A stretch of DNA of 62,937 nt, counting the filler, from Vannella sp. (Eukaryota): assembly GCA_023345925.1 (NCBI GenBank). It is 6 parts of 6 records of this genome, joined end to end, with 100 filler letters (N's around TTAATTAATTAA, not from the genome) between each part and the next. Parts side by side here need not be neighbours in the genome. Positions count along the whole stretch, not along the records: positions 28,781 to 40,605 come from JAJQQN010000432.1; 5 more parts are not named here. The stretch is one strand, 5' to 3'. Positions 1-55,183 of the stretch are shown piece after piece (the stretch's first letter is position 1; each line of letters starts with the position of its first letter). The notes beneath the pieces are model-generated. The model saw nothing but the letters and a program-made list of their open reading frames with translations, ran no database searches and had not been told where the DNA came from. Position numbers and translations under genes: made by a program.

Positions 1-64
1 GAAAGAAGCGAATGACCACCACTATGAGTCAAATCATCATTATACATCGATTTGAAGTGAAATA

Positions 65-117: not shown

Positions 118-239
118 GTCTCTAAATTGAAATTATCGGGATTTGCCGAATCGGAGGCCAGGATTGCGGAAAGTTCCGTGAATGTAGAATCGGCTGCCGA
201 AACTTTTCGTTTTGTGAGCATTCCCTCTCCTTTCCTTTC

Positions 240-1832
240 ATGATGCAACGAATCGTGGCCTTGGCCGTGCTCGTTGCGTTAGTGTGTGGACAAGACGCGT
301 GTGGAGTGAAGAACAGTACAAGGATTGATTGCGGCTTTTCTGGTATCAACCAACAAGGTTGTAACCAGAAAGGATGTTGCTGGGTGCCTGATGGACAGGG
401 CTCTTCTACTCCTTGGTGCTTCTATGGTCTTAACTACACCACAACGCCTCCTCCTTTCCCTCCTCCAGCTCATGCTGGTTCGCCCTTCACCTCTGCGCAG
501 GTCAGCACGATGTTCTCTTACTTCCTTGCCAACCTTAACATCCAAGGACTCGGTGGCGTTGTTGCCAGTCCTGATACAACCACTCCTGGAGGCTCTTACT
601 ACTACCACTGGGAGCGTGATGGAGCTCTGTCCATGCACGCCCTCCAAATCGTGTCCAACTTCACCTTCTTCAACCCTTACATGCAATCCTACGTGCAGTG
701 GGTACTCAAGGTCCAGAACGAGGCTGACCCTAACGGCATTGACGTGCGCACGGAGCCCAAGTACAACTTACCCAACGGCGACGTCTTCACTGGTGGTTGG
801 TGCCGTCCCCAGACGGATGGACCTGGCCTGCGCGCCATTGCTCTCATCGACTATGCCAACTCGTTGATGAAGAATGGTCAGAGCAACTACATCAAGCAGT
901 ACTTGTGGACGAGCAACCCCAACGTCTACAATGGCGGAGCCATCAAGCACGACTTGGACTGGATTGTGAGCAACTGGCAGCAGAACGGCTGTGACCTCTG
1001 GGAGGAAGTACAAAGCACTGACTTCTTCTGGAACCGATTCACGATGAAGCATTCTCTCTACTTGGGGTCTCAATTGGCCGCCAAGTTGGGTGATTCTGCC
1101 ACTGCTCAGTCCTACAACAACGTTGCCAATGCTATCAATCAGACCCTCATCAAGCATTGGAACGGAGAGTACATTTATGAGTCCACCAACCGCCCTGAGG
1201 ACTCTGCTGTGATCTTGGCCTTCAACAATGGATACTCGAATGATGGATTCCTTGGCCCCACTGACCCTCGAGTGACTGCCACCATCAACACATTGAACTT
1301 TGTGTTCTACTTTGCCTATCCCATCAATCTTCAGGACTCTGCCAACGGCGTTCCCGGCATTATGTACGGCCGCTATCCCGGAGACACTTATGCTGGTGGC
1401 AATCCTTGGATCCTTAGCACTGCTTCTCTTGCTCAGCTGTTCTACCGAGGAGCTGGAGGTATCATCACTGGAAACGCCATTCCCGCCAAGGAAAGTCACA
1501 AAGACTGGGAGGATATCTTCTCTTTGGTACTCAATCAAACTCACCCGGCTCATGTGTTGAAGACTTATACTCCTCTGGAGTTTGCCCGTCTGGTCACGTC
1601 AGCTGGTGATGCCGTTCTGGATCGCCTTTATGTTCATGTGCAAGCTGGGAACTTCCACTTGGCAGAGCAAATCGACAAGAACACTGGAGAAGAAGTCTCT
1701 GCCACAGACCTCACTTGGAGTTATGCCACCGTCCTCAAGGCGATGCATTATCGAAACGTTGCCAGTGCCAGTACTTTGAAGATGGCTCCTGAACTCTCTG
1801 CCGACGCTTTCTACGAGCAAGTTGCTTGGTAA
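240..1832 (+). CDS. Secreted glucoamylase (GH15) with N-terminal trefoil/P-type domain
   Basis: Signal peptide; trefoil Cys pattern (RIDCG..CNQKGCCW...PWCFY); Pro/Thr linker; GH15 motifs YYYHWERDGA, WCRPQTDGPGLRA, DLWEE, GRYPGDTYAGGNPW, LAEQ, DLTWSYA. Intronless. Confidence 0.93.
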   Translation: MMQRIVALAVLVALVCGQDACGVKNSTRIDCGFSGINQQGCNQKGCCWVPDGQGSSTPWCFYGLNYTTTPPPFPPPAHAGSPFTSAQVSTMFSYFLANLNIQGLGGVVASPDTTTPGGSYYYHWERDGALSMHALQIVSNFTFFNPYMQSYVQWVLKVQNEADPNGIDVRTEPKYNLPNGDVFTGGWCRPQTDGPGLRAIALIDYANSLMKNGQSNYIKQYLWTSNPNVYNGGAIKHDLDWIVSNWQQNGCDLWEEVQSTDFFWNRFTMKHSLYLGSQLAAKLGDSATAQSYNNVANAINQTLIKHWNGEYIYESTNRPEDSAVILAFNNGYSNDGFLGPTDPRVTATINTLNFVFYFAYPINLQDSANGVPGIMYGRYPGDTYAGGNPWILSTASLAQLFYRGAGGIITGNAIPAKESHKDWEDIFSLVLNQTHPAHVLKTYTPLEFARLVTSAGDAVLDRLYVHVQAGNFHLAEQIDKNTGEEVSATDLTWSYATVLKAMHYRNVASASTLKMAPELSADAFYEQVAW

Positions 1833-10087: not shown

Positions 10088-10187
10088 NNNNNNNNNNNNN
10101 NNNNNNNNNNNNNNNNNNNNNNNNNNNNNNNTTAATTAATTAANNNNNNNNNNNNNNNNNNNNNNNNNNNNNNNNNNNNNNNNNNNN
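10088..10187. other. Artificial contig linker (N-TTAATTAATTAA-N)
   Basis: 100-nt N run with a central all-frame stop linker; identical at five places. Confidence 0.97.
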
Positions 10188-12881: not shown

Positions 12882-13850
12882 TCATCGGAACTTGAACCGA
12901 TGCTTTTGGTCAGGCACTTGCAAGGTGATGTTTGGTTCCAGGACAGGAGGCTTGGAAGGGTCCCCTGACACGAGCCATTCATATCCGCCGCTGAAGACGA
13001 TTCCGAACCCTGATGCAGGCATCGAGGAGGGCGCATGACTTGCTTCAGGTAGAAGAGGCATAGAGGGAGTAGAAAGACTGAAGGGACTGCATGTCTCTGA
13101 GTGCGCCGGAGTCTTCTCTTGTGGTGGGGTGGATCCGCTGTAAAGTAAATCATCGGACCCTTCGGTTCTCTGTTCAGAGGTGTGAGCAGAAGAGGAACTA
13201 CGCTTCTGGTGTTTCTTGTAAATGGTGCGGAACTCTCTTCGCTGCTGGTGCAAGGGTTGGTGATGCTGTCGAGGATCGGAGAGGATGAGAATCCTCTTTT
13301 CGCGTAACTCTGAGATCCGTTTCCGAAGAGACTCCTTTTCCTGCTCAAGGACCTCTGTGAGAAGTACAGCCTCCAGCTTCTCAATCATGTTGGCCAGGCT
13401 CTGGATCTGCCGATAGGGCCAACGAGGTAGACCGAGATCACGACACAAGTTCTTTAACAACGTGGGACAGATGGCAAGATGCTCTGCCGCCTCTGCAATG
13501 GGTAGATGAAAGAGAGGTGCAATCATCTCATACGTAGTCTCCGACTGCCGCGCGGCCTTGAGCATCGGAGAGTGCCACCCGCTTAACCACAATTTGGGCG
13601 TTTTTTCTGTGAACCTTCTCAATTCGTCCGAATGTTGTATTCCCTCTTGAGGGTCGAAAAGAGAGGTCTGTGTGCTTTCTCTCTGATTGTTTCTTTTATT
13701 TGGCGTTCTGCTGGTCCGACTCTTGGGACTGCCCCTTTTGGGCTGAATGGAGCTCCCCGTGGGTTCCACTTGATCATCTCTTCTCGTGGAACCCTTGGAG
13801 AACTCCAGAGGTTCATCAAGGAAACCACAGACGCTTTCTAGTCTGAGCAC
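12882..13850 (-). CDS. RWP-RK domain transcription factor
   Basis: IAPLFHLPIAEAAEHLAICPTLLKNLCRDLGLPRWPYRQIQSL matches the RWP-RK domain; start uncertain. Confidence 0.88.
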   Translation of the reverse strand: MLRLESVCGFLDEPLEFSKGSTRRDDQVEPTGSSIQPKRGSPKSRTSRTPNKRNNQRESTQTSLFDPQEGIQHSDELRRFTEKTPKLWLSGWHSPMLKAARQSETTYEMIAPLFHLPIAEAAEHLAICPTLLKNLCRDLGLPRWPYRQIQSLANMIEKLEAVLLTEVLEQEKESLRKRISELREKRILILSDPRQHHQPLHQQRREFRTIYKKHQKRSSSSAHTSEQRTEGSDDLLYSGSTPPQEKTPAHSETCSPFSLSTPSMPLLPEASHAPSSMPASGFGIVFSGGYEWLVSGDPSKPPVLEPNITLQVPDQKHRFKFR

Positions 13851-13924
13851 TGAACGATTTACCCCCTTTGGATAACGCCTAGATGGGGAATCCTTGAATG
13901 AAAATCACCAATTTATTTGTTCGC

Positions 13925-15262
13925 TCACACTCGGAAGATTGGGAGGCGATTGCCAATGTCGGTTTGGCAGGTGGGGCACAGGAATTGGGTTTCGAGACAC
14001 TTGGTGCAGTAGCCGAGATGCCCACAGGGTATTAAGACACAATCTGCCATTCTCTCATAGCAGATCTTGCAGCTGTTCATCTCTAGTAACTCCTCCAGGC
14101 TCCACGCGGCCAACCTGGCAGCTTCTATCTCTAATTCACTCATGTGGGAGTCTTGGGGTGTTTCCAGGGACACCCGGAGATTGTCAAGAGAAGAGGCGGC
14201 CTTAACAAAGGCAAGCCTCTCAGGCTTATCCTGAAAGGGAGTGGGAGTCCGACAAGACTGTCCCATACTTCCCTCAAGCTGCGTTGACTTCTTGTAGCGG
14301 GTTTCCAGTGCATCCCGCATAACCTCGTCCGGAATGAGCTGCTCTATTTTCAAACGATCGCTTTCTGAGGGTGGCCGAAGACCTTTGTCCCGAAGGCGAG
14401 CGAGATACCTGGCAATGGGAGCGAGAAGTACTCCTTCTCGCTCACTTTCGTTCATATCTATGAGCCTACGAGCTTCTTCAACTTGTTTGTCCTCATACTG
14501 TTCGTCATAGTGGGCCTCTAAGAGTTTTCGGATCTCCTTATCTCCTGAAGAGTGCCACCAACAACGCTTCAAGAGCGGATCATCGCGAGCGCCTTGGTGA
14601 AGCAAGTCAGCTACCATATCCTTTTGGCCTGAAGAGCACGCATAGAAGAGAGGAGAGTTGCGGAAGCTGTCAAGAGAATTGATGTCCACACCGTCCTCCA
14701 AACACTTTCCCAGTGCTTCGATGTCCCCCTTCTGAGCACAATCCCAGATGTCCTTGCACATGAGAGTTGATCCAGCCCCTTGAGTGCGAGGACTGCGCGG
14801 TGAAGAAGTAGGACTAGACAAGGGAATGTGAGCACTGCACAAAACATTCCCTTCGGTGGGGCAATGCTTATCACACATTGCATTAGAGCACGTAGCAGAT
14901 GTCTGTGAACCGCAGGTAATGCATGGTGGAGACCATGGAAGAGAGAGTGAGGCACTTTTTGTCTCGAAAGTGAGAGGTTCAGACATCCACTCCTCAGCAG
15001 AGGGCACGAATGGGGTGATTTCGTTTGCAAGAACCTCTTGTTTCGGAAGATCTGCAAGGCTGAATGTAGTTGACCTCTTTGCAGAACTTAATCGCGGTGC
15101 TGCACTCAAAAAGGAAGATTCCCCCGCATGAACGGAGCATCGGATCTGTCCCGTTAAGCCACAGTCCGTCTTACACATCCGATTCGGACACTCAGCATCT
15201 CTTGCAAGCGGACAAAACGGGGTCTCGCACTGTTGAACCCTCAACTTCTTCCTCTTCGGCAT
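13925..15262 (-). CDS. Ankyrin + C3HC4 RING E3 ligase with two N-terminal Cys/His zinc-finger repeats
   Basis: ANK: CAQKGDIEAL...GVDINSLDSFRNSPLFYAC; RING: CKICYERMADCVLIPCGHLGYCTKC...CPTCQ. Intronless. Confidence 0.88.
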   Translation of the reverse strand: MPKRKKLRVQQCETPFCPLARDAECPNRMCKTDCGLTGQIRCSVHAGESSFLSAAPRLSSAKRSTTFSLADLPKQEVLANEITPFVPSAEEWMSEPLTFETKSASLSLPWSPPCITCGSQTSATCSNAMCDKHCPTEGNVLCSAHIPLSSPTSSPRSPRTQGAGSTLMCKDIWDCAQKGDIEALGKCLEDGVDINSLDSFRNSPLFYACSSGQKDMVADLLHQGARDDPLLKRCWWHSSGDKEIRKLLEAHYDEQYEDKQVEEARRLIDMNESEREGVLLAPIARYLARLRDKGLRPPSESDRLKIEQLIPDEVMRDALETRYKKSTQLEGSMGQSCRTPTPFQDKPERLAFVKAASSLDNLRVSLETPQDSHMSELEIEAARLAAWSLEELLEMNSCKICYERMADCVLIPCGHLGYCTKCLETQFLCPTCQTDIGNRLPIFRV

Positions 15263-15361
15263 CCACGAGGGCCAGCGAAACGTAAAATAAGTAATAAATT
15301 GTTAAATTTATCGCCTTTTGCTACAATTTTGACTTCGGGCAATGTTGAGGATCATTTCCTG

Positions 15362-18891: not shown

Positions 18892-18991
18892 NNNNNNNNN
18901 NNNNNNNNNNNNNNNNNNNNNNNNNNNNNNNNNNNTTAATTAATTAANNNNNNNNNNNNNNNNNNNNNNNNNNNNNNNNNNNNNNNNNNNN
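18892..18991. other. Artificial contig linker
   Basis: N-TTAATTAATTAA-N, 100 nt. Confidence 0.97.
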
Positions 18992-23325: not shown

Positions 23326-26300
23326 ATGGACGAGGACGAGTTGCACGAAATCTGCAACAACGGGGATGTTGACGGACTTCGCAAGTTCATTCGAGACGCT
23401 CCTACTGGATATGATTTCAATCAATATGAGGTGAGAGCCTTCACCCCCAAAGGTGACCTGATCCTGACCTCTCTCAGAACGTAAGTGCGAACTTTACCAC
23501 TCCCAGACTCTTCTAAGATATAGCTTGCACCATAGTGGGTAAGTGGAGTGTTACACGTCTTCTGGCTCTCCTGCTGACCAAGTCGTCATCGCGTCCACCA
23601 TTCTAGAAAGTAAGTGAAGCTCAGAGGCGATCATTGGCAAAGTTAAGAAGCTCACGTATCACTCCTTTTAGTGGGTGAGTCTCCTTACAGCGTCGAACAA
23701 GCGCGCAGAGATTGACCGGCGATCCTCCTTCTTTTTAGAGAGTAGGTGATGGCCCCGCCTTCTGGCTTTGATTGACATACTAACTATACTATTCTCCTTC
23801 AACAGTACGTAAGTGGCTAACTGACACTGTCACTTCACCGTGGACTGAACGAGGTTCCCCCTCAGACTCCGCTTGGTATTGCTTGCAAGAAGGGGCACTT
23901 GGAGGTGGCGAAGATCTTAGCTGCGCATTCTGGCGTGAACCTTGAGCAGGTGAGTGCTCACCAGAGCGGTGTCCCGCGCACAACATCGACGAACAATCGG
24001 GACTGACCCAACTTGGGGCAGGGCGTAAGTCTTCAGCTCTTTGGGAACTCGCTGTACTAGACTCTCATCAGTAACTAACCTTTGGGTGACTCCCGTTGTG
24101 GATTAGTGGGTAAGAGGACCATCCTTTGCACTGGAGTGTGGGCGCGATAGACGAGGGCGAGCTAACAGGTCTTCTAGGTGGTAGGTTTACACTAATTGGG
24201 AAGGGATAAAGCACCAAGCTCATGGAACCGAACTCTAGGGCGTACGTGCTTTCTTCCTTCCCTTCCTGAACTCACAACCGGGAAGGAATGGGTAAGGTGT
24301 TGAGACGAGGGCGTGCCACGCGCTAACTCTGCCTTTGCTTTCTTATAGGGAGTAGGTGGCCTCTTCCAAGAGTGAGGGATTGATACTAACCTACTTTGGG
24401 AGCTTAGCTGGTGAGAGTAAGTTGTTGGATGTTCCTGCGTTTGTACCTGCGTTTCTCTCTCCTCACAACAAGCGATAGACGCCATTAGAAGTGGCTTGTT
24501 CGTCAGGCGAGGACGAGATTGTCAAGTTTCTGGTTGAGAAGCAAGTGGATGTCACCCCAAAGGTAGTTCTAACGCATAAGAGCTCCCTCCAGTGCTGATG
24601 CCTTGCTGCAGGCTTTCTTAAACTACGCTAAGCAGACCATTCGAGACAAGAAGATGAGCAAAATAGCCAACTCCAACCCCACAGAGGAGCGTGACTCACC
24701 GACAAAGCGCGCTGATGAGGCACGCCGGCAGGAGGACGAGCAGGAGAGGGAGAGGCTGTCACGAGAGAACAAGAACCTCACCAGGGATGTGAGCCGCCTC
24801 AAGAACGAGGTGTCTTTCCTCAAGGACGAAGCACAACGCCAGGAGGAGCGACTGAAGAGTGCTCGCAGCCGCTCCGACAGAGACCGGGAGGCGCTCATAG
24901 AGGAAGTCAAGACCCGAAACATTGACATCGTGCCCAGCCCCAGAGGCCGCTCATCCTCTGTGGTGGAGATCAGAGAGGTGATCAAAGAGGTGCCGGTGAT
25001 CACAGAAGTCATCAAGGAGGTGATTCGCGAGATCCATGTCCCAGGCGGGGTTGCTGGTCCCACGTATGAGTCCGAAGGGTGGTGGGGCGAGGCCAATGCA
25101 GTTCTGGAAGACACGATTGCCCTCAATCAGAAGCGAATTGGCCTTGTGGATCGAGTAGAAGTTGTTGCGGATCACCTGCGCAAGTACCGCAAGGCGGGCG
25201 GATCCACTCCCAAGAACCGCCGAGCGGCTGGACCCGTCAACCTTCGTGACGATCACAACACAATCTCTAAAAGCCACGCCAGCTGGAAGAAAATCCTGAC
25301 CGACGGCCTCGAGAGCTTCTTCGCGGGTGATTTCGGCAAGGACAACTCCATTGACGTCACCAAGATCAACCTTGTCATCAAAGCTGCTCGTAAGGAACAA
25401 GAGAAGTGCCAAGAACACATCAGAGGCTTCTACGCCAAGCTAGAGGACCTCGATAACGATAATGAGAGCGCTGACATGTCCCAAATCCGCCAGCGCAAGA
25501 AAGTTATTGAAGATCTGAAGACTACCATCCAAGGCATTGCCGACCAGTACAAATTCCAGCTCCCTGATATTGAGAAAGAGATCGCAAGTTCCGATTGCAT
25601 TCCAAGTGACCTGGAAGATATGCTGAATCTCTGGAGTTCCTGGTACAGTCGCTATCAGAACTCTACCACTTCTGCTGCTTTGAACGAGCTCTCCCGCTCT
25701 CTTGCTACAACTCTTGTCTCTGCCAAGGAGGTGCTGCAGTTCCTCAAACGAGAGGAATCCATCTTTAACTTGCCTACGATTGGAGCTGCGCCACTTCCCG
25801 TGGTGAATATCCAGCAGTACCCAGCCATTCCCACCCAATTCGTTGAGTTCCTCATTTGCTGCTTCCGTTGGGCAGCTTCAGTCAGAGCTTTCTACAAGAA
25901 GCAGATTAAGTCAGATACTGAGACTTACCGCCAGCAGCAAGCTCGCGACGAAGTCCGTGCTCGTGTCCACACCATAGAAACTCAGATTGGGCAACATCTG
26001 GTTGAGGAACAGCAGATCGATAACATGGTCAATGAATTCCAGAAGATCAAGATCTCCTTGAAGAAGATGATGAGCTCCATCGCCCGCGATGATAGTAAGC
26101 TTTTGGACTATGAGATCACCATGGAAGAAGCAGACTTCAACGATGACGCTGAGATGACTAAGGAGGACATTGAAGAGCAGATGAAGAACACTTGCCAACG
26201 CATTGGACAGACAAAGGAACACCTTTGCACCATTCAGGAGCAGAAGCGATTGATTCTTCGCAACTTGCGGAACTTTGCCCTCCGAGGCCACTTGCTGGTT

Positions 26301-28370
26301 CTTGCTAACACGGAGATTTTCGACTCTCAGGGATTCCGAAATGAGCTCCTTCGGGGAGGTATGGAAGACCTGTACTTGGTCGGAGAGAACATCACAGATT
26401 ATGAGCAAATTGAATCGTTTGCCAAGTGTGTGGCCAAGTACCGGCACAAACAAGACGCCGGAAAGATCTGCGTCATGAAGCGCTACGAGATTATGGACGA
26501 GCAACAAGTCAAGTTCTTCCGCAACGAGCTCAAACTCCTCCGCAAGATGCAGCACCCTTTCGTTGGGAGCGTCGTCGGTGTTCTCTTCACCAAGAGTGAA
26601 GCTTACATCCAACTGCCTTATTATTCTGGCGGCAGCCTCCGCGATCGATGTGTTACCATTCAGCAGAAGCGCACACAATCTGACTACGCCAACAAGCACG
26701 AGCAGCGAGATTTTCACGAGATGAAGCGAATCTTCCACGAGGTGCTCCAAGCGTTGGCTTACTTGCACTCGCAATCTATCACTCACTATGATGTCAAGCC
26801 CGAGAATATCGTATTCGACGAGTACGAGCATCCCATTCTCATTGATTTTGGCATCAGCGAGGATCCCAACAGCACTCTCTTCACTCAGAATCCTGAGAAT
26901 GCCAGCTCACAAATTCGTGGGAGTGTGGGGTACATTGCACCAGAGATCAAGTCTGGCCAACCCTCCATTCTCACTTCAGATTGCTGGTCCTTTGGCGTGA
27001 TGCTCTTTGAGTCATTCTACGACCTGCCTAACTTTGACCTGGAAAGCTTGGGACTGGTGGAGATTCCAGCACACTCTGACGAGGATCTGCGGGCTCTGTT
27101 GAAGGGACTACTCAACACGGACCCCTCTCGGCGATTCACAGCATCTCAAGCCCTTAAAAGCGCATTCTTCTCTCAGAAGTCGTACGAGAAAGCCTTTGAC
27201 AGGGAGAGTACAGTTCAATCTGCCAAGAAGCTGGAGGCTTTCCGCCACTTCCTGGAGATCATTCGCAACAACGATCGTCTTTTCATCATCAACATTCACC
27301 GCGAAGTGTTGGTGAAAGACATCTTCACCGAGTTCCGCAGCAAGACAGCGAACCCTGAAGCTATGCGATTCCAAACCGTCGTCCAGTACATTGGCGAGAG
27401 TGGCATCGACACGGGGGGTCTCCGCCGCGACCTTTACTGCTCCTTCTTTAAGGAGATCTGCGATAGCAAGTATGGCATGTTTGAACTCAGCAGCGAGGGC
27501 AAGTTCTATTACCCCATTCCAGACAAGGACCGCAAGCAGAGCTTAGAAGAGCAGTATCTTCTCTTTGGCAAGATCCTGGCCAAGACTATGATTGACGGGG
27601 ACGTCATTGGAGACTATTTCCCCATCACTCTGTTCAAGTTCCTTGCGGACCAGCAGGATACCATCGACCTTTCTGATGTCTATCTGTACGATAAGCAGCT
27701 TTATGGGAACTTACAGTCATTGCTTATGCAGTCCATTGATGGGTGGGAGCTTGATTGGGACATTGACGAGAATCCCAACAACTACGAACTCATTGATGAC
27801 CGCAACAAGGACGTTTACATCCTCCTGAAGAGTCGCTCAGTGCTGATTGACCAAAGGAAAGAGGCGCTCAATGCGATTAAGAAGGGCTTCCAATCCGTGC
27901 CTGAATTACTGTCTCACTTGGCCCTCTTATCGCCAGTGGAACTGCGCCTCCTCCTCAGCGGAGAGACGTACATTGACGGTGACATGGTTCTGCATCAGAT
28001 TGAGTTTGAGGAGCGGTGGGAGAAGCCAGATGCTCAGGCTACACGAAAGAACTTCTCCAAATGGATCCGGACAGAAGCCAGCTCGGACCAGCTGAAGATG
28101 GTCCTCATGCTGACAACTGCCTCGCCCACCATCCCCGTTGGTGGCTTCAGCCCTCCCATCAAGGTCCGCTATGTTGATGGTAAGCAACTCCCTCTGCGTT
28201 CTCACTCCCTTCTGACATGAACCAACTCAGATTCGACTCGGTTGCCCGAAGGGCAGACTTGCGTCAACATGCTCATGCTTCCTAACTACAAGGATGATTA
28301 CGCTCTATTAACCAAGCGCTTTTCAACCGCTTTGGAGAACATTGGATCGAGCGGGTTCCAACTCAACTAA
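23326..28370 (+). CDS. Ankyrin-repeat (microexon-encoded loops) - coiled-coil - protein kinase - HECT E3 ligase fusion
   Basis: Exon 23326-23430 (MDEDELHEICNNGDVDGLRKFI...FNQYE); 6 microexons; exon 23866-23949 (TPLGIACKKGHLEVAKILAAHSGVNLEQ); 7 microexons; exon 24479-24562 (TPLEVACSSGEDEIVKFLVEKQVDVTPK); exon 24612-28179 with kinase (VMK, HYDVKPEN, DFG, GYIAPE) and HECT (GESGIDTGGLRRD); last exon 28231-28370 with the catalytic Cys motif LPEGQTCVNMLMLPNY and TAA. Confidence 0.9.
23478..23808 (+). other. Microexon array A1: six 3-nt exons AAC, TGG, AAA, TGG, AGA, TAC (N W K W R Y)
   Basis: Positions 23478, 23536, 23607, 23672, 23739, 23806; each is yAG|NNN|GTRRGT, separated by 47-68-nt introns with branch-point-like motifs. 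Confidence 0.85.
24022..24410 (+). other. Microexon array A2: GGC, TGG, GTG, GGC, GAATGG (6 nt), GGA, CTG (G W V G EW G L)
   Basis: Positions 24022, 24107, 24178, 24239, 24286-24291, 24349, 24408; each flanked by an AG acceptor and a GTAAG/GTAGG/GTACG/GTGAG donor. Confidence 0.82.
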
Positions 28371-28510
28371 CCAGTTGGTTTCCAAACCATAAATGGGTCA
28401 TCCATTCTGCCTTGGTCCATTAACCTCTCCAGGATGGCGCCAATGGAAAGAGGGCTGCAGAAGGGGTATTCTGAAGTTCTCTGACCTTCCAGGCCATGCT
28501 TGTTTGTCCT

Positions 28511-28645
28511 AGGACAAGCTCCACCTTGGGATGGGAGATGGATGTGGACTTTCAACCTTCCAGAGAGAATCCACGAGCGAAGGGGAAGAGGGCAGAACTC
28601 GTGTTTGCGTAGCTTGTCCTGATGACCTCCATCTCCTTTTTCTTT
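28511..28645. repeat. Dispersed structured repeat / candidate ncRNA, copy 1
   Basis: Core CGTAGCTTGTCCTGATGACCTCCATCTCC shared with 29054-29081 and 40403-40430; inverted repeat GGAGATGGA (28534) / TCCATCTCC (28628) followed by TTTTCTTTT. Confidence 0.6.
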
Positions 28646-28680
28646 TCGCCTTCCGCGGGTCGCACCTCTCTCCGTGCGAT

Positions 28681-28780
28681 NNNNNNNNNNNNNNNNNNNN
28701 NNNNNNNNNNNNNNNNNNNNNNNNTTAATTAATTAANNNNNNNNNNNNNNNNNNNNNNNNNNNNNNNNNNNNNNNNNNNN
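28681..28780. other. Artificial contig linker
   Basis: N-TTAATTAATTAA-N, 100 nt. Confidence 0.97.
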
Positions 28781-28965: not shown

Positions 28966-29103
28966 GGAGATGGAGCATGTTCCAGAGTCGTCCTGCTCTT
29001 CGCATGTTTGGAGAAAATCCACGAGTGAAGGGGCAGAACCCATGTTTGAATTTCGTAGCTTGCCCTGATGACCTCCATCTCTTCAGGATAAGCTTTTGGA
29101 CTT
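28966..29103. repeat. Dispersed structured repeat / candidate ncRNA, copy 2
   Basis: GGAGATGGAG...AATCCACGAGTGAAGGGGCAGAAC...CGTAGCTTGCCCTGATGACCTCCATCTCTTCAGGATAAGCTTTTGGACT. Confidence 0.62.
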
Positions 29104-29257
29104 ATTTCATTTTTTCGCTTTTTGGATGTTTGAGGACCCAAACAAGGGGAAATGCCCTCGCCGCTCGTTTGCTGTTTCCCTAGAACTGACAATTTTAAAA
29201 ATCTTTGAGCAAATAAAATGATTAGAAGGAAAAGGCTTCATTTTGGTTCCTCTTTCG

Positions 29258-30218: not shown

Positions 30219-32494
30219 ATGGCACACACGGGTGGCCTCCGAGACGCCATTTACTCTGGCAATTTGAGCCAGTTGAAGGCGTGTTTGGACGCCAATCCTG
30301 AGGCTCTTAACCAAGTGGGTCCTCCTTCACTTTGAGAAAGCTATCTTTTGAGAAGGAGAGGCTTGATGAAGGAGAAGACTCACCAAAAGGGGATCATTTA
30401 AGATTGTTAGTGACACATTACCTCGCTAAGGAGAAGCAGGCGAATACAGTACACTAAAACGGTCTCTTTTAGTGGGTAAGTGATTGATCCATAACCTTTC
30501 ATGAGGAAAAGGAGATTTCCAGAAGATCCTGATCAGAGAAGAGAGGTTCTCACCGAAAGTCTCATGTAGGAGGTCAGTAACTCATTGAAGGAATCTTCTT
30601 GAGAAGGAGATGAGAGAAGAACTCACTAAAAAGGCTCATTCAGCAAGTAAGGACTGATCTGCTGCTCCCTTTTATGATAAGATCAGCTCATTCAAATGAA
30701 CTTTAGGATGTGAGTACCTATGTACTTCTGATGAGGAGATGGACCCACTTGATCAGAAAAACTCACCAAAAGTCCCCTTAGCGAGTAAGGATAGTTAGTC
30801 AGATAGAGAGGAGGGCCATTCATCATGATGGGCCTTTCAGGGCGTAGGTTACCATTTCAAAAGAGAAGAATTCAGCAAACGGATCTCTTTTAGTGGGTAA
30901 GTGACTGATTGATCCATCACCTGCCTTTGGAAAACCAGAGATTCAACAAGAGAAAATACCATAAGGCTCACTTAGAGTCTCGTTTAGTATGTAAGTGACA
31001 AACTGTCATCTGGTTTGATGAAGAAAGCCTTCTCTAAAATGTTGTGTTTAGGAAGTAAGTGATTCTAAGAGAGAAGAAGAACTCACCAAAAGCGCCCCTT
31101 TCAGAAAGTAAGTGACTGATATCCTAAGTTGATGAGCTTGAGAGAGGGGAATTCACCAAAATGGTCTGTTTTTAGAGCGTAAGCGACTGGTTCATTACTT
31201 TCAAACCGGCCATATGAAGGACATGTACTCATCAGGGCTTTGCTTAGTGGGTAAGTGATTCAATCCATCACTTTTGAGAAAAGACTCTCAGAAGGAAAGG
31301 AAATTGCGAGACACTGATCAATCGAGTCCAATTTAGGCAGTAAGTTATCAGGCTGTAAGCTGATTAGAAAACTGTTCCCCAAGACAAGGAGTAGTGCTCA
31401 TTAAATGATGAATCTCTTTTAGTGGGTAAGGAACTGAATGATCATCTCTATTTGGAGAAAGGAACTAATTATCACTTTAGGTAAGTTGCTGGGATTGCTA
31501 CCTACTCCCCCTGCCAATGATTCATAGGATACCTTTGAAAATTGCTCACAAGCTTGAAGACCATTCTAGGATGGGCTTCGTTTCAAGGATGGGACAAAAT
31601 AGTAGAGTTCTTGGTTACTCGACGTGGCATCGACCTTCAAAAAGGAGTATGTTCAAGGTTTGTGAGAGATTCTTCTCACATGATTTTTCAGAATGTAAGT
31701 TCTTTCTATCAGTGTCTAGAACTTGAGGTGGCTAGGTGAGTCAGCTTTACCAAGATATAACCTTGATTGAATGATAATCTTATTGACCCTGAGATTCAAG
31801 AGTTCGTGTTCACATACCGTGCTCCTGAAAATTCTCGAGAGACTCTGAGATAAGGAAGAAGAACTCACCAAAAGACTTTAGACGGTGAGTGATCGATTCA
31901 TCTCTGCTTTTGAGGAGAGGAGCTGCACTATCAGCAGGGAAAATAGCTCACAGAGAAGAATTATTTAGAGAGTGCGTGATTTTTTCCACCTTATGAGGAA
32001 AAGTACTTCTTGAATGGAACTTGGTCAGAGGTTTATGAGGAGAAACTGACCAAGTTCTGAACTTTAGGGAGTGAGTGACTCAAAAATCACGGTAGAATGG
32101 AGGTGAGCATTACTGAAGATGTTTTAGGATGTAAGTGCCTCATGCATACTCCTTGATGTTGAGCGGATGCGAAGAAAAGACTCAAACTGACTAAGGAATG
32201 TAATTTAGACAGTGAGTAACTGATCACTCTTTGGTGAAAACCCTCTCACGTGGGGCATGCTCAGTTGGTAGGTAGTAGACTATCACTACAAGAAAAACTA
32301 ACCGAAACCGGATTCAGTCCTCGCTGGATCTAGCTCTGCGTCGAGGACCCACACACAATGCAGTTATTGAAATTCTCATCTCTGCAGGGGCAAAGTGCAA
32401 AGATGTGCGAAATCTGAGTGTCTACCAAGGAGTACTTACTTCAGCAGGAGCAAACTTTGATGGAAAAATATCTGGGGGAGAAGAACCAGGCTGA
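30219..32494 (+). CDS. Small stand-alone three-ankyrin-repeat protein with microexon-encoded loops (not in ORF track)
   Basis: Exon 30219-30314 (MAHTGGLRDAIYSGNLSQLKACLDANPEALNQ); 15 microexons; exon 31560-31646 (TILGWASFQGWDKIVEFLVTRRGIDLQKG); 7 microexons; exon 32318-32494 (SSLDLALRRGPTHNAVIEILISAGAK...EPG*). All junctions are phase 0. Confidence 0.85.
30403..31425 (+). other. Microexon array B1: fifteen 3-nt exons ATT TGG GAG CAA GAT CGA GGC TGG TAT GAA AAA AGC TGG GCA TGG (I W E Q D R G W Y E K S W A W)
   Basis: Starts at 30403, 30473, 30570, 30644, 30707, 30782, 30841, 30894, 30988, 31052, 31105, 31176, 31248, 31337, 31423; each AG|NNN|GT, usually with an upstream CTCAC/CTCAT-like branch motif. 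Confidence 0.87.
31692..32267 (+). other. Microexon array B2: AAT, ACG, AGA, GGA, GAT, ACA, TTG (N T R G D T L)
   Basis: Starts at 31692, 31882, 31969, 32068, 32128, 32209, 32265; each yAG|NNN|GT. Additional ambiguous sites at ~31735 and ~31801. Confidence 0.82.
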
Positions 32495-32790
32495 CTCAGT
32501 TGCCTTGAAGCAGAAGAGAACTCAACAGCACTGCATAATGTCTTGATTCTCATCAAGGATGACATAAAGTGTCGATACTCAGAACTCATTTTCTGGATCT
32601 TCATGCAACATTCAGGATTCAGAGCTCCCGTTAGCTCAGTAGGATGTCCTGAGATGAGAGAGTCCAACAAGGCCCAGACTGATTGCCAGGAAATAATTGC
32701 TTCATAATGACTTTATCAATGAAATCCGCTGGCTGATAAGGATTGTAAAATAGGAGGTTAAATAAATCATTATATTTGATCTTTGGGTTG

Positions 32791-39179: not shown

Positions 39180-39726
39180 AAGTGAGGCGAGCGAATCCAA
39201 TCAGCAGAATGGCACTTTATAGTCCCCACTTGTCATGTACACTCTTACTTGGCCAGCTTGCTTGATAAGAGCTTCATTTACGCTCTTCAGACTCTCTGTT
39301 GAGAGGCGCTGACTTCCCTTTGCAGGAGGACCTACTGAGTTCCTTATCATATGGATGATAATCGCACTCGCTTCTCCTCCGCCAAGAGCCAAAGGGAGAT
39401 CGCAGCAAGGTCTAGTACCATAAACTCCAGTTGAAACTCCCAGCCTTCATGTTTCGTGACAGGAAGGCTGGGGCATTGACCGAATGGGGTTGACAGGTGA
39501 CTTGGCGACAGTCAATCCTTTGGCCACCGACCTCATTCAAGAACCATTTTACAACTTCTAATCACTCACGTAGAAGTTGGCTCATTTCGAGAGGTAGTCA
39601 GTCGAAAAGGGGCGATTCGCTAAGATTGGCCAATTCAAGGAAAAAGAAAAGAAAGGTGAAAGGGAGGACTAAAGAGAGGCTTTGAGGAGACAGCACTCTT
39701 CAAACAAACTCCTTCTGCCTTCTTCT

Positions 39727-40308
39727 ATGCAATCAATCAAGTGTGTCGCTGTTGGGGACGGTGCTGTCGGAAAGACGTGCCTTCTGACCACTTACACAAC
39801 CAACTCCTTCCCCAGTGACTACGCTCCGACGATCTTCATCAACTACGCGCGCGAAGTCATGGTGGATAACAAGGCTGTTCACTTGGGCTTGTGGGACACC
39901 GCAGGACAAGAAGACTACGATCGCATTCGCCCCCTTTCCTATCCCCAGACCGATGTGTTCCTCGCATGCTTCTCCGTGATCTCCCCAACCTCCAGAGATA
40001 ACATCAAGTCCAAGTGGGCTCCAGAGATTCGCCACCACTGCCCCTCTGCCTCCGTGATCCTCGTGGGAACCAAGATCGACTTGCGAGATGACCCCGCCAT
40101 CACCTCCCGTTTGGCCGAGCGTGACCTTCCCATCACTTTTACTGAGGGATTGGAGTGCTCCAAGCAGATCCATGCGAACAAGTACATCGAATGCTCTGCC
40201 TTGACACAACAGGGAATGAAGAATGTGTTTGACGAAGCCATCCGCTCGGTCACTGCTCCTCCATCCTCTAAGCCCTCCAAAAAGAAGGCTCCTTGCTCTC
40301 TCTTATAA
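39727..40308 (+). CDS. Rac/Rho-family small GTPase
   Basis: [44 protein letters not shown], polybasic region + CSLL CAAX box. Intronless. Confidence 0.96.
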
Positions 40309-40605: not shown

Positions 40606-40705
40606 NNNNNNNNNNNNNNNNNNNNNNNNNNNNNNNNNNNNNNNNNNNNTTAATTAATTAANNNNNNNNNNNNNNNNNNNNNNNNNNNNNNNNNNNNNNN
40701 NNNNN
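40606..40705. other. Artificial contig linker
   Basis: N-TTAATTAATTAA-N, 100 nt. Confidence 0.97.
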
Positions 40706-55083: not shown

Positions 55084-55183
55084 NNNNNNNNNNNNNNNNN
55101 NNNNNNNNNNNNNNNNNNNNNNNNNNNTTAATTAATTAANNNNNNNNNNNNNNNNNNNNNNNNNNNNNNNNNNNNNNNNNNNN
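55084..55183. other. Artificial contig linker
   Basis: N-TTAATTAATTAA-N, 100 nt. Confidence 0.97.

Follow-up and report, generated by a model that had tools for sequence, protein, structure and literature searches.

Putative arrays of single-codon exons at the hairpins of two ankyrin genes from a likely amoebozoan genome

Described systems with codon-sized exons

Frame-preserving exon cassettes multiply isoforms in the micro-exon genes of Schistosoma and in the Dscam clusters. The closest described systems are found in ankyrin genes. In Tuber melanosporum, NACHT-ankyrin (nank) genes have been reported to contain tens of 3-bp exons that are alternatively spliced and diversify these genes (Iotti et al., 2012, PMID 22289772), a statement carried by papers citing that work (PMC4986451, PMC10197012, PMC13449251, PMC9815663, PMC3689799). 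In Drosophila, five microexons are listed for sowah, and those of 3, 3, 6, and 12 nt appear in the sheet of constitutive microexons (PMC8042270, Tables S4 and S5). A preliminary description of the locus considered here knew of no described equivalent; on this point it has to be corrected, since codon-sized exons of Tuber nank genes and 3-nt exons of sowah were already published.

The hairpin of the ankyrin repeat is also the site where binding diversity has been introduced by design. In DARPins, the beta-turn and a helix are randomised, and LoopDARPins add a long variable loop (PMC4384111), in agreement with the earlier proposal that the hairpin at stake here corresponds to the DARPin randomisation site. 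Natural ankyrin repeats are 24-48 residues long, insertions occur mainly at the hairpins and binding is enriched there (PMC4687027). Finally, exon shuffling with frame-preserving cassettes is described for brown-algal ROCO and NB-ARC-TPR genes.

The target gene and its arrays of codon units

The window, that is, the whole stretch of DNA analysed (62,937 nucleotides, from a Vannella sp. assembly), consists of six contigs joined by N spacers (N44-TTAATTAATTAA-N44, at 10088-10187, 18892-18991, 28681-28780, 40606-40705, and 55084-55183), so that adjacency across spacers carries no meaning. The target gene sits on the contig at 28781-40605 (Table 1).

Table 1. Features of the two genes with codon units and of other window genes (positions along the window; units given as first position and residue)
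Feature	Position	Strand	Description
Exon 1, target	30219..30314	+	Start codon; N-terminal cap-like ankyrin helix pair; ends at Asn-x before the hairpin
Extra candidate unit ATT (Ile)	30403..30405	+	AAG acceptor, GTTAGT donor; weak; uncounted in the preliminary description
Array 1, target	30473..31425	+	15 three-nt units; introns of 50-94 nt except a 12-nt gap
Array 1, units 1-5		+	30473 W, 30570 E, 30644 Q, 30707 D, 30782 R
Array 1, units 6-10		+	30841 G, 30894 W, 30988 Y, 31052 E, 31105 K
Array 1, units 11-15		+	31176 S, 31248 W, 31337 A, 31352 A, 31423 W
Ala unit pair	31337..31354	+	GCA 31337 and GCT 31352, 12 nt apart; short local duplication
Zero-length unit	31479..31482	+	AG then GTAAGT directly (31480/31481); branch-like CTAAT upstream
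Exon 2, target	31560..31646	+	One ankyrin helix-turn-helix core from the TPLH position; acceptor AAG, donor GTATGT
Array 2, target	31692..32267	+	Seven three-nt units
Array 2, units		+	31692 N, 31882 T, 31969 R, 32068 G, 32128 D, 32209 T, 32265 L
Zero-length unit	31735/31736	+	AG directly abutting GT, in array 2
Exon 3, target	32318..32494	+	Ankyrin core and tail up to TGA
Open frame past stop	32495..32707	+	70 codons beyond TGA 32492-32494; weakly coding-like
Ankyrin exons, second gene	23326-23430, 23866-23949, 24479-24562	+	Pfam Ank on both internal exons
First array, second gene	23478-23808	+	Six codon units N, W, K, W, R, Y
Second array, second gene	24022-24410	+	Six codon units G, W, V, G, G, L
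Large exon, second gene	24612..28220	+	Coiled coil, protein kinase and HECT ubiquitin-ligase domains
Glucoamylase (GH15), N-terminal trefoil domain	126-1832	+	Pfam
RWP-RK domain protein	12885-13904	-	Pfam
Ankyrin-RING gene	13928-15301	-	Ordinary ankyrin gene, hairpin without microexons

Three large phase-0 exons had been proposed for the target gene, each coding for one ankyrin core. The translations agree with this proposal, and the assignment to ankyrin holds to a variable extent. Exon 3 is ankyrin-like according to the ESM Atlas and to an independent ankyrin profile, and gives a weak DARPin alignment (best E 0.01). Exon 2 shows a weak Pfam Ank_3 match (E 0.053) and matched no PDB chain. Exon 1, followed by a GTGGGT donor and scoring highest as coding in the proposed frame, gave no Pfam match, its ankyrin call being made by pattern only. 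Pfam searches of the target exons, of the ORFs that flank them and of the second gene gave no NACHT match, and no SOWAH-related family matched the exons searched. Because the frame stays open after the TGA, the 3′ end of the gene is uncertain; the open stretch, without significant Pfam match, may be a former or alternative C-terminus.

The arrays of three-nucleotide units that had been placed between these exons are indeed present. The pattern YAG-NNN-(GTRAG/GTAGG/GTGCG/GTATG) occurs 21 times in 30315-32317; across 300 simulated sequences it averaged 0.26 occurrences and never exceeded 3. When the unit length was set to 0, 1, 2, 4, 5, 6, 7, 8, and 9, counts of 2, 0, 0, 0, 0, 0, 1, 0, and 0 were obtained for the same region, the enrichment being restricted to lengths 3 and 0. 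A 22nd unit, GAG at 30570, is followed by the donor GTCAGT. On the plus strand of the whole window, 32 of the 41 three-nucleotide matches fall within the four arrays of two genes. Donors and acceptors are strong consensus sites in most units, with GTCAGT, GTTAGT, and GTGCGT as weak donors. Introns of the target gene are mostly 45-96 nt long, close to the range of about 48-95 nt first proposed, from which four depart clearly (12, 134, 187, and 158 nt, the last unless the ATT unit is used). The flanks of this ATT are homologous to those of other units (z 6-9), and its use would turn the 158-nt intron into 88 and 67 nt. Branch-like motifs, already pointed out in the preliminary description, are seen 17-28 nt upstream of the acceptors. 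The count of no stop among the 22 triplets is also correct, though insignificant at local base composition (p 0.21). Trp makes up 7 of the 34 codons across the two genes, for a background frequency of 1.3%; as the units are related by duplication, no weight is given to this share.

This DNA is reproduced by independent contigs. In three DNA runs, all from one biofilm study, 24 listed contig pieces show mostly 0-3 differences from the target stretch. As Tandem Repeats Finder, in addition, returned no row inside the arrays at score 30, these are neither an assembly artefact nor a simple satellite. It is very improbable that the pattern is an unspliced by-product of a degenerate satellite or of an assembly error: the codons are varied, the units occupy four ankyrin hairpin positions in two genes, and the best pairs of units are only about 65-80% alike, where satellite units would be near-identical. 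What such an origin has in its favour is that 50 of 118 listed metagenome loci with the pattern are stop-rich or monotonous repeats, as are, without exception and in monotonous form, the 15 pattern loci found on viral contigs.

The position of the arrays within the repeats points to a coding role. At the four junctions (4/4) of the two genes, the large exons end with the conserved Asn or immediately behind it, and restart at the TPLH position, in a register that we take to be that of the 33-residue ankyrin consensus. Since the large exons carry no hairpin at these places, it can come only from the codon units. Without any unit, the two repeats of the target would have 28 and 29 residues; with all of them, 42 and 36, the former value lying in the long tail of the natural range. 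The two Ala units of array 1 are only 12 nt apart, the shortest intron being otherwise of 41-45 nt in the two genes; hence they cannot both be joined and one at most would be used. In the assumed register, array 1 offers 14 usable codons for the 5-6 needed in a canonical repeat, which bears out the excess noted earlier, and array 2 offers 7 for 4-5. In both arrays, the first units reach Gly (30841; 32068) at its canonical position and the surplus comes after it, with 8 codons in array 1 and 3 in array 2. Judging from the sequence, the units look like genuine coding microexons at the ankyrin hairpin.

The ceiling of 2^22 isoforms put forward in the preliminary description has to be lowered, as distinct peptides number at most 13,912 × 124 = 1.7 million, of which 51,639 (about 5 × 10^4) have the loop length of the canonical register. 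When isoforms were scored with a profile built from 18 bacterial ankyrin repeats, no subset size was clearly favoured.

As regards the host, a marker is provided by a methylmalonyl-CoA mutase encoded on a different contig of the window, for which the best-matching named relatives belong to Amoebozoa (73-75%; others up to 90%). In a quick tree built from this protein together with 52 of the 120 matches listed, it falls in a 12-row clade (support 97) within a 34-row group (support 91), which includes dictyostelids, Physarum, and Planoprotostelium and stands apart from fungi; Balamuthia lies outside, on a long branch. The host is therefore likely an amoebozoan, provided that the contigs share one organism; tetranucleotide correlations among the six contigs, from 0.27 to 0.59, speak neither for nor against this. 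Two further observations concern the target contig. A short repeat at 29040-29170, dispersed and reaching a depth of thousands in each of the three runs, with a similar stretch at 28500-28680 near the end of the preceding contig, is likely a high-copy interspersed element of the genome. At 39700-40000 lies a Ras-family gene, and each of the three runs contains diverged copies that are about 85-90% alike.

A second gene, the history of the arrays and related loci

The same codon-unit design is found in a second gene (23326-28220), located on a different contig of the window and absent from the preliminary description. Its large exon, with Pfam matches to Pkinase (E 3e-38) and HECT (E 3e-32), is likely joined to the ankyrin exons through a 49-nt intron (24563-24611). 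With all units included, its repeats would have 38 and 34 residues, near the canonical size. Five relatives (51-84%) are the only close kinase-plus-HECT relatives in the protein collection searched, and all five lack the ankyrin part, being predicted to start at the large exon. Searches for shorter and for more distant spliced forms of this gene returned 1 and 3 proteins, none with ankyrin, and no spliced orthologue was found by protein searches, which gave proteins beginning at the large exon or fragments. The kinase-HECT protein had no relative among viral contigs. Even if all units were always included, genes with codon exons escape gene callers, as illustrated by the missing ankyrin part of the relatives.

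The two genes differ in the history of their units. In array 1, 21 of 105 pairs of units are homologous at z>4, compared with 0 of 66 pairs in the second gene, the introns of which show no mutual homology. Array 1 therefore grew by duplication of intron-plus-codon cassettes, whereas we infer that the gene combining ankyrin, kinase, and HECT represents an older member of the family, one that is nearly fixed. Codons of nearest-neighbour units in array 1 are identical at the chance level (0.24) versus 0.39 in a held-out flank, a difference that is suggestive only. Consensus CTRAC branch sites are found in 0 of the 17 introns between exons 1 and 2 and in 3 of 26 in the whole target gene, where units are not independent; the second gene has them in 8 of its 15 introns.

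Paralogues of the target are likely. In the three runs, 9/17, 6/13, and 9/15 contigs fit only partly, with several aligning at 80-90% to a single unit or to the beginning of exon 2 before continuing into unlike flanks; such partial matches come from all three runs, and diverged copies of exon 2 occur on other contigs of these runs. The target might itself be a decaying or neutral paralogue, with units born from slippage or unequal crossing-over, heterogeneity reflecting splicing noise, and the TGA at 32492 as a nonsense mutation. This possibility seems unlikely. The weakly coding-like frame of 70 open codons past the TGA, the degenerate ankyrin cores, the AAG acceptor of exon 2, and the zero-length units would all be in line with decay. 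However, the three exons are intact and in frame, and 21 units keep their splice signals despite introns diverged to about 60-80%. Furthermore, two exon-3 differences in run X1, seen at low depth, both affect third codon positions and are synonymous.

Codon arrays were also searched for in metagenome contigs. A scan for three consecutive units gave at least 119 stretches, of which 118 loci were kept; 68 of the 118 passed a filter for stop-poor (at most 15% stops) and varied codons, the remainder being satellite-like. Removal of 5 duplicates and, by eye, of L011 and L083 left 61 loci. Among the codons of these listed loci, 10 of 1270 are stops against 6.4% expected, a depletion that is partly circular because loci had been pre-filtered at 15% stops or less. 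For 133 ORFs from 63 listed loci, Pfam gave NACHT/NPHP3_N in 3 loci and a single locus each for ankyrin and for a GTPase, while 4 had transposon or weak matches and the remainder none; the independent profile detected ankyrin cores in L047, L053, and L080. These codon-array loci are likely fungal. None of the matches listed has an array between two ankyrin cores, an absence of little weight because many loci are short. L047 (1900-4640) codes for a NACHT-ankyrin, nank-like protein. Its last ankyrin repeat is followed by a series of about 30 codon exons that includes two TGA units; these would either have to be skipped or point to decay. L080 (802-6570), L072 (2243-6425), and L069 (3025-6685) carry very long arrays, in which about 50-79 codon units are separated by introns close to 70 nt, the array of L080 coming after ankyrin exons. 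In L038 (2315-5202) and L053 (2131-4025, reverse strand numbering), arrays rich in W, Y, N, D, and A lie downstream of a small GTPase-like domain (an MMR_HSR1 match in L038, a similar P-loop by eye in L053).

Inclusion of the units and comparison with known systems

Considering these properties, several modes of use of the units may be envisaged. In the first, which we prefer while giving it even odds, splicing would draw on the surplus that array 1 gained by duplication and include varying subsets of units, yielding a mixture of binding loops on one scaffold. Each short intron would be removed by intron definition, and skipping would couple one donor to a later acceptor, the frame being always preserved. 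The early units would spell a near-canonical hairpin through the conserved Gly, and the run of units beyond it would likely provide alternatives or insertions beside the TPLH position. By analogy with the proposal made for the Tuber nank genes, the family might then act in non-self recognition. In favour of such mixtures, skipping of 5-10% per unit would by simple arithmetic leave all 14 units together in 23-49% of transcripts; the Ala pair that cannot be co-included and the two zero-length units, as well as the Tuber precedent of alternatively spliced codon-sized exons in ankyrin NLRs, weigh on the same side. So do the enrichment of the units and their position at the four junctions, the size of the all-included first repeat in the long tail of the natural range, the homology of array-1 units with codons identical only at the chance level, the scarcity of CTRAC sites in the target relative to the second gene, and the likely paralogues. 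Against them count the synonymy of the Ala pair, which adds no diversity, the CTCAC-type branch sites that are common in candidate ordinary introns too, the near-canonical repeats of the second gene, the failure of protein searches to find a spliced orthologue, and the target protein itself, devoid of an effector domain and possibly truncated at TGA 32492. Long hairpin insertions are moreover natural (PMC4687027), and the sowah microexons are constitutive for the four checked of five.

In a second mode, somewhat less probable though a serious contender, all codon exons would be joined in one mRNA, as in sowah, so that the loop would be long and invariant. Cassettes that are duplicated, lost, or mutated would then alter the loops residue by residue without frameshifts, and loops would vary between paralogues or alleles. 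The constitutive status of the sowah exons of 3, 3, 6, and 12 nt, the strong consensus sites of most units, and the second gene, with its near-canonical counts and old, unrelated introns, speak for fixed inclusion; so does the size of the all-included target repeats, inside the range of 24-48 residues given in PMC4687027. Duplication of units and likely paralogues with other flanks are equally compatible with this mode. Yet, it leaves a surplus of 8-9 residues in one hairpin, the Ala pair, the zero-length units, and the weak donors suggest imperfect inclusion, and the Tuber arrays are reported as alternatively spliced.

A bolder extension of the subset model may be imagined, and it is put forward tentatively, as possible rather than probable. 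The genes would belong to an amoebozoan family of ankyrin sensors, with predicted combinatorial splicing of single codons, thousands of binders per gene, and thus a natural LoopDARPin repertoire. At least one member would be coupled to a kinase and a HECT domain, which could tag recognised intruders. If this were true, the present genes, together with Tuber nank and animal sowah, would indicate that codon exons and the ankyrin hairpin have become associated repeatedly or since ancient times. More generally, if such subsets do arise, splicing alone would provide a free-living single cell with a CDR3-like repertoire aimed at the binding hairpin, with a bearing on phagotrophic protists that face giant viruses and intracellular bacteria. 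The two genes provide a built-in comparison, between an expanded array with surplus and near-canonical arrays.

How do these genes stand among the described systems? Searches of the open-access literature yielded no account of codon exons in ankyrin genes of amoebozoans. Drosophila sowah, likewise an ankyrin gene, resembles the present genes by its 3-nt exons (GGC, TAT), next to which it has exons of 6 and 12 nt. Its microexons, which are taken to spell the hairpin, are few, conserved, and constitutive, without the surplus or the expansion of the target. The second gene is near this canonical codon count; array 1 of the target is not. As in DARPin and LoopDARPin libraries, variation would be directed to the beta-turn of a constant ankyrin scaffold; DARPins are engineered and also randomised at helix positions, beyond the reach of the arrays. 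The cassettes of Schistosoma, Dscam, and brown algae are larger (several codons, whole repeats or domains) and belong to other protein families.

The Tuber nank genes come closest, with tens of codon-sized exons in an ankyrin gene (here 22-23 units in the target and 12 in the second gene) and ankyrin repeats, which are present in both genes here, if weak for target exons 1 and 2. They are reported to form an expanded family, for which diversification of the recognition domain through alternative splicing is proposed. A NACHT domain was detected in neither gene here, and the host is likely an amoebozoan rather than a Pezizomycete fungus. Furthermore, arrays lie here between each pair of ankyrin cores, while in three likely fungal loci they lie before or after the cores. 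The target would work like the Tuber system but stands outside it, being without NACHT and not fungal. Thus, although codon-sized exon arrays of this kind were already published, the host lineage, the location of arrays inside each hairpin, and the kinase-HECT partner architecture appear to be new.
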